DNA of 56,537 nucleotides, counting the filler, from Dugesia japonica (Eukaryota), in the NCBI GenBank assembly GCA_001938525.1. It is 6 parts of 6 records of this genome, joined end to end, with 100 filler letters (N's around TTAATTAATTAA, not from the genome) between each part and the next. Parts side by side here need not be neighbours in the genome. Positions count along the whole stretch, not along the records: positions 27,444 to 36,967 come from MQRL01169391.1; 5 more parts are not named here. One strand, written 5' to 3'. Under the pieces are notes generated by a model. It did no database searches. It worked only from the letters and a program-made list of their open reading frames with translations, and was not told where the DNA came from. Below, one piece after another: positions 27,829-36,094 of this stretch. Positions within the stretch are counted from its first letter, which is position 1; each line of letters starts with the position of its first letter. Made by a program: the position numbers and the translations under genes.

Positions 27829-28734
27829 ATGTCTAGATCTGTAGAAATAAAAGAATTTAGATGTTCTGTTTGTAATAAAACTTTTAAAAATAATGCAGGG
27901 TTGGCGTCTCATATTCAATCAAAAACGTGCACAAAACCGGCAAAATTGTATTATCAATGTAATATTGGTTTCAAAAGACTAGCAAGTGAAAAAGGTTTGA
28001 GATTACACAAAAAATCTACTTCATGTGGAGCAAATATGGCCGGTTTAGTTTCATTGTTTTGTAATATTTGTGGTTTAACATTCACAAGAAGAAATCATGC
28101 TCAATCTCATTTTAATAGTGATTTAAATAAAAAGGAAGTTTTAAAAATAATAGAAGAAGATGCTAAAAAATTATTTGATGAATTACCTGGAGATGAAGCC
28201 ATTGATTTTGAAAATAATGAAACAAAAAAATTATTTAAACATTTAAAGAATATAAAGTTTTATAAAATCGAATATTTTAAAGAAATTAAATTGAATTAAC
28301 TAGAAATGTTCAACAATTAAATTTTAAATTAATAACCCGGTTTAAAAAAGAAATTACTAAAATTGTTGATTTATATTTTGATAATTCAAAAAAGTTGATA
28401 TTACTATTAAGTGTAAACTGTAATTATAAAAAAGAAGATGAAGAAAGAATATTTAATTCATATTCAAGTAATGAAAGAATAACAACGAAAGGGGGTGTAG
28501 AAATTGCTGTAAGTGAGTTATTAAATCAACTTCAAAGATACATGAAAGATAAAGATCAAGATGAAAGTGGTTGAAATTTAGATTGTATTGTCGATTTCAA
28601 AATAGAACTTTCTAAATATCAATCATTAGTTGGAGGTACCTATATAAAATTACCATTTATTAAACCGGGAGTAATTAATATTAAAAATAAAGATGATTTT
28701 TGTTTTCTATATTCAATTTTAGCACATAAACATG
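27829..28734 (+). pseudogene. Zinc-finger-containing N-terminal region of a protein-primed PolB, truncated
   Basis: Three C2H2/C2HC-like fingers (CSVCNKTF...H, CNICGLTF...H). After a frameshift near 28290: ESG*NLDCI...YQSLVGGTYIKLP...VINIKNKDDFCFLYSILAH, matching the Polinton PolB N-terminal signature (SGW...GSSYIxLP...INIKNxDxxCFxWSILA). Confidence 0.8.
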
Positions 28735-29280
28735 AGTAGTGGTAAAAAGGCGGGATTGGGCACCCCACCCCCAGGACCATAGATATGTATATAGATATGA
28801 TTAGGGATAGGGAGTCCCAGTTCCGCTCATATAACTTATAGTTAGATATGTATATAGATATGATTAGAGATAAGAAGTCATAGTCCCGCACATATAACTT
28901 ATAGTGTGTTAGAGTTAGATATGTATATAGATATGATTAGGGATATAAGTCATAGAGAGAGACACTCACACACATAGAAGTTGTGATTAGGGATACTGGA
29001 TTATAGCCTTATGTATGTAAGTTATAAAAAGTTAAGATTAAGGGTAGAGATAGCTAGTATGAGGATAAAAAGAAGGTGGATTGTAGTTTGTAGATAAAAA
29101 AACTGGTTTTAGTTAAAGAAATTGAACCAAAGTTAAAGATGCATGAACTTGAGCGAACATGCATGAACTTGAGCGAACATGCATGAACATGCACGAACAT
29201 GCACGAACTTGAGCGAACATGGACGAACTTATTCGAAGATAGGTGAAACATGATAGACTAAAGTTTATTCAAATTTTTCC
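28735..29280 (+). repeat. Putative Polinton terminal repeat region with internal tandem arrays
   Basis: Begins AGTAGTGGTAAAAAGGCGGG exactly where PolB similarity stops; three ~63-75 bp units (28780-28960) and nine decamers (29141-29230). Partner TIR not in the window. Confidence 0.6.
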
Positions 29281-29288
29281 TATATAAA

Positions 29289-29960
29289 ATGGAAGATAAT
29301 TATAAATTAAATGAAAATGCTAATTACTATAGTTTGAATATGAAAGAGCAAATTATATTAAGTAAATATTTAGATAATATAAGTAAAAATTTAACAATTA
29401 AACCAAGAGAAATAGCTAATAAAATTGGAGTTAGTACTAGAGAGTTGAATAATGTGTTTAGAAAAAAGGATATTATAAAACCAGCTTCAAAGAAAAAGAC
29501 TACACCTAAAAGATTTACTTATGATAATATTAAAGAAGTACTTGTTCCAGATAGAGATTGTTGTTATTGTAGAAAATGTAAACAAAGTATATTAGAATTT
29601 AAACCTAAAAAAGAAAAAATTACAGTAGAAGAAAAGTTAAAACTAGAAACAGAAGAAATAAAAAGTAAATTAATTGCTGGGTTTCATGATAAAATTCAAT
29701 ATACTAATCTTGATCCAAGTAATTATAGGAATTTATGTAAAGAAAGAACTAAAGAATTTAAAGGAGGAGCAATTTATCAAGAAGAAGTAGATAATATTAC
29801 AAATGAAATAGAAAAATTAAGTATTCCTTTAAAAAGACAAATAGAAACAAGATCGGGACCAGTAGAAACAAGTGTGAGACCAGTAGAAACAAGTGTGAGA
29901 CCAGTAACAAGATTAGTTAGAAATTCAAGTCAATTAGATTTAACTAGTGACTTTTCTTAA
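29289..29960 (+). CDS. Polinton ORF, 223 aa, putative HTH and Cys-cluster DNA-binding protein
   Basis: Open ATG-TAA frame; IKPREIANKIGVSTRELNNVF looks like an HTH; CCYCRKC; C-terminal PVETSVR repeat. Confidence 0.7.
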   Translation: MEDNYKLNENANYYSLNMKEQIILSKYLDNISKNLTIKPREIANKIGVSTRELNNVFRKKDIIKPASKKKTTPKRFTYDNIKEVLVPDRDCCYCRKCKQSILEFKPKKEKITVEEKLKLETEEIKSKLIAGFHDKIQYTNLDPSNYRNLCKERTKEFKGGAIYQEEVDNITNEIEKLSIPLKRQIETRSGPVETSVRPVETSVRPVTRLVRNSSQLDLTSDFS

Positions 29961-33458: not shown

Positions 33459-33495
33459 AAAACATCCTTCTAACTTAAATTAGTTCCTAATAAAA

Positions 33496-33995
33496 ATGGT
33501 TCTACCAATATGGAAAAATAGTGCTTCTAAATTTAAACATGAAATATTTCCTCCTCAATTTAGATGTTTAATAATTGGTTCATCTGGATGTGGTAAAAAT
33601 GTTTTGTTATTAAAAATTTTATTAACTCCAGGTTTTATAGACTAAAATAATTTGATTATATTTTCAACTACTATTAATCAAATTGAAATTCAATTATTAT
33701 ATCATTGATTTAATCAAGGTCTTTCTAAACAAGATTTAATTAATATATTTTCAGATGAAGTACAAGAAAGAATTCCTAAAGATTTAACTCCTCAAGAAAT
33801 TATCTTTTGGTATTCCAGTTCCCAGTTTAGTTTAAAAATAGATTGGAAAGAACAAGCAATTGATGAAACTATAGATATTACAATTTCAACAAAATCATCT
33901 GAAATTATTCCATGTGACAAGTTACCATCAAATAAGAAAAATTTAATTATATTTGATGATGTAGTAAATGAAAAGAATCAACAAATACAGAGTTT
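33496..33995 (+). pseudogene. A32/FtsK-like genome packaging ATPase, two stops, 3' truncated
   Basis: Not in the ORF track. ATG at 33496; FRCLIIGSSGCGKN (Walker A); KKNLIIFDDVV (Walker B) at ~33937-33966. Confidence 0.88.
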
Positions 33996-36094
33996 CAATC
34001 ATCTCACAATTTGAAATAATGAATAATTAATTAAACATTCCGTTTATATAGGATTTAAAGCAAGTGTGTATTAATTAATTACATTGATACGTTTAAACAA
34101 TTTATTCTAGAACATTCATATTAAAATTATTTAAACGTTTATTAATTTTAAATTAAATTTAATGTATTTGAAATTATAATAGTAATATTTACTGTTTTTT
34201 TCTATAAAACATTTTATGTATAAGGTTTGTTAATTTTTAACTACGTAATTCATACTCACAGTAACGTTTCATATTGATTTAATACTTTAAAGTTCAATTT
34301 GGCATTACTTTTGATATTTTCTTCAAATATTACAAATTCCGGAGGACAGCTATACATGTTCGTTAGGAAGCATTTTTACCGAGATGGTAATTTTTCTTTG
34401 CACAGTCAATTTTTTGTCCTGAGTAAAATAATACTAATTTTGAGTCGATAACAAATCTCTATGCACAGAGGTCTGAGGTCTAATCTTTGAAATTTGACAT
34501 ATAGAAAATATTTTTCAAAAGTTTAGACTGTTCATCCAGATTCCCGTAAAATTTTTTTTTTAAAAATTTTAATTTTTCATATTATTTAAACATGAACGGT
34601 TTATTCGGATTCCTATAATAAATTTCCATAAAAATGTTTTCCCCACTAAAAAGCTTGAATAAATTGCTGATTAAAAAATATTACCGTTGACAACGATTGG
34701 AAAATTTTCCCATCTAAAAAGACTAAAATTGAAAATAATTCTCCATACCTTACAAACAACGTTTAAAAATTAAATAATTTAGTTGCAAAAAAATTGAACC
34801 AAATTTTCGGTTTATAGTAATCAATTATTTGTTTGATAGTTTAATTTACTAAAGTATTCAACACTAATTTAAACATTAAATTGCGCTAAAAACTTTATCA
34901 TTTAAAACCACATGTATGTACAAATTCTTCTTATAAAGTCTTAAAAACAAATTCAAAAATATTTCAGAAAATTGTCAATGTTCACCAGTTTATAATATTC
35001 AGATTTTCAATCGATATAAAACATTCGAATTTCCTCATGGTTTGCATCTGACAAGAGAAACATTGTCAAATTTAATTGTGACTGATTGTAAATAAATTGT
35101 ATAGAAAATAAAACCAATTATTGATTGATCAAACACAGAAATGATTTGATATTTATCAATTACTTGATTCTATTTATCTATGATTATTTTTTAGTTGATT
35201 TAGTTTTATAGAATAAATATTATCAACGAAAGTTGTTTGAAATTCATTATAAGTCAATAATCTAAAATTTTGATTTGTTTCTTTCATTTTGTAAACTATG
35301 AAGTTTAATTTTATAAATTTTTATTAGAAAAATAAATTCATTAATTTAAAAATGATCAAATTTATTTCGACTTATATTTTGAAATGTGTGAAAATATTAA
35401 TATATAAATTAATAAATTTATAAGATAAATATAATATAGATTAGTTTCAAAAAAAAGAATAATTTGATAAAACAATTTGATTATAATTTATATTGAAATA
35501 TTTAAACAAATAACTCGAATTAATCATTTCTATGATTCATGTGTATTTTTTATTCAGTTGAAAATTGGCAATAGATTATAAATAAATATTTAGTTTGCAT
35601 TATTAATTATCAAATCTAAACTACATGCGAAAATAAGAAAAGAAAATAATAAAATAATTTATTTTACATTTCAAAATTCATCACATGTAAGAATTATATC
35701 GTTTCATGATCGTATGATATCCATCGAGTATTTCTTTAAATGCAAATATAATATTGATTATCAAACTAGATTTATTTTAAATTTAAAAATTACCTAAAGT
35801 TATAACAGAATTGATCCGTATATTTAAATGATTCATCATTTAACTTGCAAGATCTATCTCATTTAATTAATCTAATATATTTCAATATTGACCAAAACTT
35901 TGTAAATGGTATTTCAAATAATTTCTTGAAACTAACTATTGGAAATATAAGTCGATTAAAATTCAATAAAATTTATATTTTTTAGTTATGCGAATGTAAG
36001 TTTAATTGGATCCATATTTGAACGAAACATTCAAAATTGTTTATTATCAAATATATTATATCTAACTTTGTAATTATAAACTAGAATTTTAACA

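Follow-up and report, generated by a model that had tools for sequence, protein, structure and literature searches.

The analyzed stretch of Dugesia japonica DNA, here called the window, is 56,537 nucleotides long and contains 40 runs of N. On its plus strand, from 28735 to about 33990, lies the 5.3-kb stub of an element whose assignment to the Maverick/Polinton group is supported. The sequence-only reading had placed an endogenous, capsid-encoding virus of this kind at 27829..34000. That identification agrees with the double jelly-roll capsid, the rve-family integrase (in a broken gene), the A32/FtsK-like packaging ATPase (truncated), the (AGT)2 end, and the many related copies found here. 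The genes are real, but the element is a decayed stub rather than a complete virus, and the earlier reading was silent on its truncation and on the frame changes and stops that break the integrase and ATPase genes, and it counted the PolB piece as part of the element. The named genes all lie on one strand, with gaps of 16, 16, 53, 9, and 37 bases and no signs of introns, so the ORF coordinates bear out the gene order and compact layout first described. The features are listed in Table 1.

Table 1. Features of the element and of the DNA beside it, in window positions.
Feature	Position	Strand	Evidence
C2H2 zinc-finger ORF, 156 aa	27829..28299	+	Pfam zf-met E 5e-13, other C2H2 families
Maverick-type PolB N-terminal piece, one stop (28572-28574), cut at inner element's end	28290..28734	+	phmmer relatives
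Left end: AGTAGT, GC-rich first 50 bases, 63-bp tandem repeats (28780-28905), 10/20-bp repeats (29139-29230)	28735..29288	+	
Open ORF, 223 aa, HTH-like by eye only	29289..29960	+	
Open ORF, 134 aa, Lys/Glu-rich	29977..30381	+	
Open ORF, 82 aa, one hydrophobic stretch	30398..30646	+	
Major capsid protein (MCP), double jelly roll, frame open	30700..31998	+	PF21738, model, Foldseek, tree
Zinc finger-PLA2-rve integrase fusion gene, no chromodomain, broken	32008..33458	+	Pfam, alignment to intact relatives
A32-like packaging ATPase, stops at 33643 and 33706, ends just past Walker B	33496..33990	+	
High-copy repeat abutting broken ATPase, outside element	33989..34600	.	Contig depth

Gene content and decay

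The capsid gene encodes a recognizable double jelly-roll protein with unnamed relatives. It has 432 codons, two of them unreadable because of N bases, and matches PF21738 with an E value of 5e-19. A structure prediction had been proposed in the sequence-only reading, and the resulting model (pLDDT 82) has the expected fold, matching in Foldseek the double jelly-roll capsids of PBCV-1, iridovirus, Sputnik, and mavirus (E about 1e-13 to 1e-11, TM 0.50-0.64). The 15 sequence matches are all unnamed metagenome proteins with 26-48% identity. In a tree whose rows are all unnamed, the window's MCP falls within a separate, fully supported clade of 12 rows of such proteins. Two loci that carry PLA2 on a pX-like protein (PLA2X; L020 and L024) have MCPs that align to it with E values of 1e-13 and 4e-16, at only 21-22% identity. 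Searches with the MCP profile gave no relative, either in viral_contigs (0 of 257 candidates) or among PDB sequences (best E 0.38). The suggestion of an uncharacterised lineage therefore stands within the searchable databases, where the MCP matches are unnamed; Repbase families and adintovirus protein files lay outside the comparison. The element likely belongs to the group 2 Mavericks, a placement reached indirectly, through comparison with sequences that carry no group name.

The PLA2 and integrase domains are encoded by a single broken gene. The phospholipase domain, common in group 2 Mavericks but not defining for them, matches PF08398 with an E value of 2e-8. PLA2 motifs lie at 32298 and 32400, the boundary motif MVGSG at 32547, and the D-D-E residues at 32673, 32875, and 32992. 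The integrase pieces align over most of their length to intact rve relatives, with 36-54% identity, and singly they fall below the Pfam cut-off. Frame changes occur near 32160-32200, 32822-32851, and 33210-33255, followed by a stop at 33402-33404. Assembly error was rejected as their source: in two DNA runs, contigs that align without gaps cover two of the frame changes. The integrase does end at FYANELQLTR without a chromodomain, as first read, and the gene end at 33458 is like that of relatives lacking this domain. Its absence is not a peculiarity of this copy, since 65 of the 100 listed fused homologues have no PF00385.

The ATPase gene is also damaged. It matches Pox_A32 with an E value of 0.003, which is under the curated cut-off, while the A32-like ATPases of relatives align to it with E values of 2e-26 to 1e-14 (tblastn). 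The gene breaks off at 33987-33990, at a point corresponding to residue 179 of a 274-residue relative. The copy at 28735-33990 can make neither the fusion protein nor the ATPase.

No relatives of the three small ORFs turned up in 30 loci or among the proteins collected for comparison. The helix-turn-helix label given to the 223-aa ORF found no backing in Pfam or the Atlas, and the 134-aa "coiled coil" ORF has no Pfam match. In the 82-aa ORF, the hydrophobic, putative transmembrane stretch coincides with a tandem repeat of 6 bp (30570-30622) that codes for it. The window has no match to other ORFs of loci L001-L018 except for the MCP, integrase, and ATPase. A protein-primed PolB of the element's own is absent from the surviving stub, and the window has no protease gene. 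Protease-like ORFs are present in relatives L008, L011, L013, and L019, and PolB-like ORFs in the fusion-bearing relatives L019, L026, and L028. Some ORFs of relatives are presumably minor capsid proteins, a label that comes from their position; they have no Pfam match.

Ends, flanking DNA, and related copies

The left end of the element has features of a Maverick terminus. Its first 50 bases have a GC content of 0.56, compared to 0.20 just upstream, and the chance of finding AGTAGT in a given 10-base window is about 0.003. (AGT)2 is given as the most frequent Maverick end in the available text of PMC8097293. No second AGTAGT end, inverted end copy, or 6-bp target duplication was found within the window. 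An exact search of viral_contigs with the opening 20 bases of this end gave nothing, and none of the 30 loci matches the end region.

The DNA upstream of this end appears to come from a second Maverick. The PolB piece has 89 relatives in an exhaustive phmmer search; a word-index search among longer proteins gave none (0 of 839). Nine long relatives were scanned, and PF03175 was found in three and Endonuclease_7 in three. The homology covers 28308-28736 and ends at position 162 of a 222-position profile, 60 positions short. The PolB N-terminus noted at first is thus real by homology, but it is located beyond the AGTAGT end, which is precisely where it breaks off, and it was rejected as the element's own polymerase. 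Its position outside the end makes a second Maverick, host of the insertion, its likely source. The zinc-finger ORF overlaps the PolB piece in a different frame, and its start codon sits in an A-rich context like that of the element's genes; by inference, it likely forms the opening part of the PolB gene that was interrupted. Because PolB homology stops exactly at an AGTAGT end with a jump in GC content and subterminal repeats, the element was likely inserted into the PolB gene of another Maverick, with the nesting order deduced from this arrangement. A reading in which the PolB piece is part of this element, with AGTAGT at 28735 as an internal rearrangement point such as a tandem or circular junction, is highly improbable. 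The two sides do share strand and base skew and have a similar start-codon context. However, at a head-to-tail junction the element's other end should precede AGTAGT, where instead a PolB interrupted within a domain is found, and the window lacks an inverted end copy.

On the right the element runs into a high-copy repeat. The summed contig depth is 3,587-61,164 over 34005-34598 in DNA runs, and a contig from another copy begins to match at 33989 and extends beyond its match with sequence unlike the window. The host-like, AT-rich DNA reported after about 34000 therefore begins with a high-copy repeat and not with unique host DNA. This repeat may have caused the truncation. No piece spans the junction at 33990 among the best 16 of about 22,150, and contigs matching this copy with 0-3 differences are found on both sides of it in two samples.

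These contigs bear on whether the locus was assembled correctly. The zinc-finger/PolB piece and the capsid module could have been joined by misassembly of a repeat-rich draft, which would make the nesting, and perhaps the 34-kb junction, artefactual. The N runs in the window (40), the highly repeated nature of the family, and a right junction spanned by no contig among the matches listed fit such an error. It is nevertheless improbable, as the join coincides precisely with a canonical end motif, where the two sides share no sequence that could create a false overlap, and the right junction is flanked in both samples by the nearly identical contigs.

DNA runs of a single organism, taken from separate studies, contain many related copies. 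Contigs over the whole 5.9-kb stretch number 10,379 and 11,300 in two DNA runs, and most are 90-95% alike. Summed depth, which is not copy number, is 2,100-62,000 over 14 of 15 element bins, compared to 5-8 for contigs matching this copy. Poly-A reads reach a depth of at most 0.4 over the MCP, integrase core, and ATPase of this copy in two runs. Among the matches listed, which leave out small shares, no RNA run carries the element.

The phospholipase-integrase fusion among relatives

The PLA2-integrase fusion is a conserved and widespread architecture, a point of which the sequence-only reading took no notice. PF08398 and PF00665 occur together in 100 of 120 listed homologues of one intact relative, a share that is biased because the query was itself a fusion. 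The homologues are related, and therefore the counts of fusions and motifs are not independent. Among 30 loci, 11 hold both PLA2 and rve: six have PLA2 directly before rve and five have it on pX. No locus among these 11 has two PLA2 domains. The five PLA2X loci are close relatives of one another. The fusion is intact in L002 and in the natural protein P0041, it has an in-frame stop in L001, and only its C-terminal part is found in L003. Relatives keep pX as a separate gene (Adeno_PX in L002, E 9e-4). L030 has a different fusion, Peptidase_C5-rve-chromo, with LTGG at the boundary. A quick integrase tree was built with 36 of the 100 fused proteins, the window being represented by one piece filling 41% of the columns. 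On this tree, whose outgroup branch is very long, the fusion trait needs two label changes and unfused integrases lie among fused ones, a pattern compatible with one origin of the fusion or with several. The papers searched contain no account of the fusion, though automatic database names carry it.

The boundary between the two domains has a conserved glycine motif that resembles adenovirus-protease sites in sequence. All 52 aligned proteins have the same lysine and glycine, after which comes x-G in 39 and G in 12. GG or GxG is found in 91 of 99 boundary segments, compared to 12 of 679 control segments from the integrase core. The MVGSG of the window fits the adenovirus consensus (M/I/L)XGX-G, as given in the available text of PMC4246237. 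In the P0041 model (pTM 0.64, pLDDT 88), the first of the two glycine sites is disordered and the other sits at a helix break, and the scores would fit loosely linked domains.

Proposed maturation and packaging, and known systems

With somewhat better than even confidence, we read 28735-33990 as a decayed, truncated Maverick, likely within the polymerase gene of another, whose PLA2-integrase fusion was likely a packaged precursor cut by a protease. The integrase would probably be packed into the particle behind PLA2, which would address the fused protein to the virion core, by analogy with what is thought for PLA2X. An adenovirus-like protease of the element may then cut the boundary, giving an entry phospholipase and a free integrase that would arrive with the incoming genome.

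The same decayed Maverick may instead have made an unprocessed fusion, a one-piece protein, packaged or not, in which the glycine motif is the end of the PLA2 fold. This is possible but rather doubtful. The motif K-x-x-hydrophobic-G-x-G also closes the PLA2 domain in PLA2X proteins and therefore may simply cap its last helix; helices lie close by on either side in the P0041 model, and only 12 of 99 boundary segments fit the strict consensus. However, the adenovirus protease accepts relaxed sites according to the available part of PMC4246237, and a second GG site lies ahead of PLA2 in 52 of 63 proteins. The motif also occurs at the independent protease-integrase boundary of L030 and is more than tenfold enriched in pX-like core proteins (3.55 per 100 aa, compared to 0-0.28 in the MCP, the presumed minor capsid protein, and the ATPase).

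The comparison with known systems is drawn from the available portions of the sources cited. Group 2 Maverick-Polintons (Polintoviricetes; Bellas and Sommaruga, 10.64898/2026.06.19.733378) share the double jelly-roll MCP, A32-like ATPase, and rve integrase, and a phospholipase domain is said there to be common; here it is on the integrase, and the MCP is in a separate clade. Alpha (Mayetiola-class) adintoviruses (Starrett et al. 2021, PMC8502044; Buck et al., PMC11071296) have in common a parvovirus-like PLA2, hexon, FtsK-type ATPase, rve integrase, and endogenous decayed copies. Their PLA2 is fused to a pX-like domain, the virion module of this group, and their integrase ends in a chromodomain, an adintovirus feature in the sense of PMC11071296. 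Both are absent at the locus, where PLA2 leads directly into the integrase. Adintoviruses in that sense are also marked by an OTU-bearing PolB and by a hexon that BLASTp recognises against the reference viruses. Spodoptera frugiperda Mavericks 1 and 2 (PMC5803895) also have PLA2, an A32-like ATPase, and an integrase, and their PolB has endonuclease VII, like relatives of the outer PolB piece. Unlike the window, they have PLA2 on a separate 'CAP' ORF and an integrase with a chromodomain. Vertebrate Mavericks (Barreat and Katzourakis, PMC8097293) share the (AGT)2 end, intronless ORFs, and mostly decayed copies; a phospholipase is not mentioned in the available text of that paper, whereas the window has PLA2 and only one end. 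Adenoviruses have glycine-pair sites in core precursors, like the boundary in the window, but they lack an integrase, and most fusion boundaries fit only a looser motif (PMC4246237). Maverick virions have not been observed so far, according to the available text of 10.64898/2026.06.19.733378, and the mavirus preprint has nothing on integrase packaging.

Taken alone, the locus is one more commonplace fossil from a large family, and its importance is small. A broader proposal, held tentatively and at well below even confidence, is that a broad Maverick branch would make a virion polyprotein of zinc finger, PLA2, and integrase linked by protease sites, that PLA2 would address the integrase to the particle core and the maturation protease would release both, so that the integrase would be delivered ready on entry, as in retroviruses, that PLA2 would shift between pX and integrase, and that the L030 fusion would be an independent route to this outcome. 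The conserved fusion of an integrase to an entry enzyme, with protease-like bounds, is directly testable in vitro on natural intact proteins. Whether PLA2 sits on pX or is part of the integrase, and whether a chromodomain is present, may serve as a marker for sorting group 2 Mavericks.

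Composition of the locus

The capsid-bearing element appears to have landed within a polymerase (PolB) gene belonging to a different Maverick, so that the locus would hold two elements rather than one. The segment at 28290-28734 is the N-terminal region of a Maverick-type PolB and has 89 relatives by phmmer; nine long ones were scanned, and DNA_pol_B_2 and Endonuclease_7 were each found in three. The sequence-only reading had assigned this segment to the same element, but its homology is cut at 28736 (position 162 of a 222-position profile), and an AGTAGT end begins at 28735. 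AGTAGT is the commonest Maverick end according to the accessible text of PMC8097293, and would turn up by chance in any one 10-base window with a probability of about 0.003. At this point GC jumps from 0.20 to 0.56, and there are 63-bp subterminal repeats. No second element end or target duplication was found within the window. The element has either lost a PolB of its own, its second end, its minor capsid protein and its protease, or these were not detected.

Features of the window
Feature	Position	Strand	Remarks
Open ORFs	27829-28299, 29289-29960, 29977-30381, 30398-30646, 30700-31998	+	five in series; the last has 432 codons
PolB N-terminal region	28290-28734
AGTAGT end	from 28735
Zn-PLA2-integrase gene	32008-33458	+	order zinc finger, PLA2 (PF08398, E 2e-8), rve integrase; frame changes near 32160-32200, 32822-32851, 33210-33255; stop at 33402
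ATPase gene	33496 to 33987-33990	+	stops at 33643 and 33706
Contig with the element	27444-36967		flanked by two artificial joints
Artificial joints (five)	8932-9031, 17156-17255, 27344-27443, 36968-37067, 46710-46809		each an artificial 12-base spacer bounded by N's
Gypsy-like retrotransposons (two, decayed)	22917-25496, 42211-44705		rve and Integrase_H2C2 matches on 42211-43008
Mariner transposase remnant	49294-49969		HTH_48
Pogo/Tc5-like transposase remnant	2668-3206		HTH_Tnp_Tc5
Pieces presumably of Penelope-type reverse transcriptase and GIY-YIG nuclease	19807-20705	-	no Pfam match
Two coding-like pieces, presumably acyltransferase	26460-27082	-	beside a gap; may be host exons; no match reaching the Pfam cut-off
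MITE-like inverted repeat	41167-42215		312 bp, 98% complementary, enclosing 425 bases

The element behaves like a Maverick/Polinton, as had been proposed, and qualifies as one on its capsid protein, ATPase, integrase and single end motif taken together. The 432-codon ORF matches the double-jelly-roll family PF21738 (E 5e-19). Its structure model (pLDDT 82, pTM 0.84, from 15 sequences) resembles the capsids of iridovirus, PBCV-1, faustovirus, mavirus and Sputnik (7-12% identity) as well as predicted viral capsids (13% at most), so the claimed major capsid protein (MCP) gene stands. The helix-turn-helix and coiled-coil labels given to other ORFs are supported by no tool result. The 15 MCP matches are all unnamed proteins (26-48% identity), and the members examined in 10 clusters of MCP relatives include no named protein. 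In a tree of 23 rows the window's MCP falls in a 12-row clade (support 100/99) together with those of the related loci L001 and L002. Loci L020 and L024, in which PLA2 is fused to core protein pX (PLA2X), lie outside it at 21-22% MCP identity. The integrase gene terminates without a chromodomain, as had been claimed. The element lacks two adintovirus hallmarks as the papers on them are worded, the chromodomain and PLA2X, and it is therefore not classed as an adintovirus. The phospholipase domain and the MCP matches, all to unnamed rows, suggest membership of group 2.

Decay and copies of the element

The window is AT-rich (15-36% GC per kb), carries gypsy, mariner and pogo remains, and belongs to a eukaryotic draft with many gaps. 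Near-identical DNA is present in DNA runs from at least three studies of one organism (shares 0.43, 0.34, 0.31), and the run with the highest share may be from the source sample. Apart from the five open ORFs, the coding sequence survives in fragments. The first and third breaks in the integrase gene result from decay, because gap-free contigs cover them: one from run X1 (31940-32234, 0 differences) and one from run X3 (33181-33306, 1 difference). Assembly error is thereby ruled out for these two.

The element belongs to a large family of diverged copies. When contigs of two DNA runs were placed on 31035-36960, 10,379 and 11,300 matched, mostly 90-95% alike. Summed contig depth, which is not copy number, is 2,100-62,000 in 14 of 15 element bins, against a depth of 5-8 for the contigs that match this copy. 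By the same measure depth is 3,600-61,000 over 34005-34598 and 26-355 over 34599-36182. The DNA after the ATPase, previously taken as host-like from about 34000, is thus a repeat. The ATPase ends at the equivalent of residue 179 of a 274-residue relative. A contig from another copy of the right-hand repeat begins to match at 33989 and is unlike the window past that edge, suggesting that the edge of this repeat truncated the gene. No piece spanning the junction at 33990 occurs among the 16 listed of about 22,150.

Depth differs among parts of the element. Summed depths are only 133 and 163, far below the rest, over the zinc-finger linker at 32025-32222, which contains a 20-bp tandem repeat, indicating that this linker is peculiar to few copies. 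The PLA2 stretch 32223-32618 reaches 23,000-62,000, several times most other bins, and it may also occur in other families or in short derivatives. Poly-A depth is at most 0.4 over the MCP, integrase core and ATPase (588 and 89 reads placed from a quarter of each of two runs). Stranded reads of poly-A run X11 over PLA2 derive from another copy, all 21 of 21 differing at one place. At 34962-35020 both RNA runs match 59 bases, and the reads diverge on either side into one common sequence each; this is either a repeat that is transcribed or exon-like sequence from elsewhere in the genome. Poly-A reads also contain the very high-copy repeat at 36300-36600, which has a tandem unit of 28 bp.

Distribution of the PLA2-integrase fusion

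L001 shares the window's gene order (MCP, then Zn-PLA2-integrase), its fusion having one in-frame stop. In L002 the fusion (P0041) is intact, 441 residues long and on the opposite strand, and there are a separate pX-like gene and an ATPase. With P0041 as query, 967 of 8,000 candidates scored were matches; the 120 listed comprise 100 with PLA2 and rve (35 of them with a chromodomain), 19 with only rve and one with only PLA2. Three ESM Atlas clusters (184, 111 and 72 members) combine PLA2 with rve under the label Preplasmiviricota; they scored 0.81-0.83 and serve as leads only. The architecture is thus already in databases under automatic names.

PLA2 directly precedes rve in six of the 30 compared loci (L001, L002, L019, L026, L028, L029), several of them broken. 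It lies on pX in five closely related loci (L020, L021, L022, L024, L025), and none of the 30 has both placements. In L025 (471-1502) PLA2X and protease form a single ORF, possibly a single-copy change; they are adjacent separate ORFs in L020 and L024. Unfused rows fall among fused ones in a quick integrase tree, from which the number of fusion origins cannot be read. L028, L029 and L030 are Maverick-like contigs inside prokaryotic MAGs, likely eukaryotic or viral contamination.

The fusion is not described in the accessible text on adintoviruses and Mavericks of PMC8502044, PMC11071296, PMC5803895, PMC8097293 and 10.64898/2026.06.19.733378, nor in that of PMC3671162, PMC4246237, PMC11296320, PMC4028283, PMC11131425, PMC11161782, 10.1101/2023.08.22.554363, 10.1101/068312 and 10.64898/2026.07.28.741253. 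Gene maps in figures, bioRxiv supplements, subscription papers or Repbase may show it or the same family.

Domain boundary and possible processing

The adintoviruses described to date carry PLA2 fused to pX, and a function in entry is ascribed to it from the parvovirus parallel (PMC8502044, accessible text), whereas the window's lineage carries it on the integrase. The sequence pattern at the boundary is K-x-x-hydrophobic-G-x-G, with K and the first G invariant in all 52 aligned proteins. Of 99 boundary windows (one of the 100 fused proteins was skipped), 91 contain GG or GxG, versus 12 of 679 integrase-core windows. The main rival explanation gives the motif no role other than capping the PLA2 fold, as the PLA2 domain of PLA2X ends in it too. 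A second GG site precedes PLA2 in 52 of the 63 proteins of sufficient length. Sites cut by the adenovirus protease read (M/I/L)XGG-X or (M/I/L)XGX-G, and relaxed sites are known (PMC4246237, accessible text). The window's boundary, MVGSG, agrees with this consensus, which in its strict form occurs in only 12 of 99 relatives. Motifs of this cleavage-site kind are frequent in pX-like core proteins, with 63 in 1,777 aa, but scarce in MCP (7 in 3,385), in what is presumed to be minor capsid protein (5 in 1,805) and in ATPase (0 in 2,032, Walker A masked). The P0041 model shows disorder at residues 31-36, and in it two helices are separated by a break at G150-G151. L030, filed under a bacterial MAG, looks like a Maverick; in one ORF (9551-10957) an adenovirus-type protease (PF00770, E 1e-4) is fused to an rve integrase and a chromodomain, and LTGG lies where the protease meets the integrase.

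The best reading of the fusion is a precursor that would be packaged and then cut during maturation, so that the incoming genome would receive entry enzyme and integrase together. That a broad branch of Mavericks makes its integrase as a virion polyprotein is a tentative proposal, and we lean somewhat against it. Overall the locus itself is an ordinary fossil, and the PLA2-integrase domain shuffle that it led to is widespread, apparently unremarked in the searchable literature, and testable.
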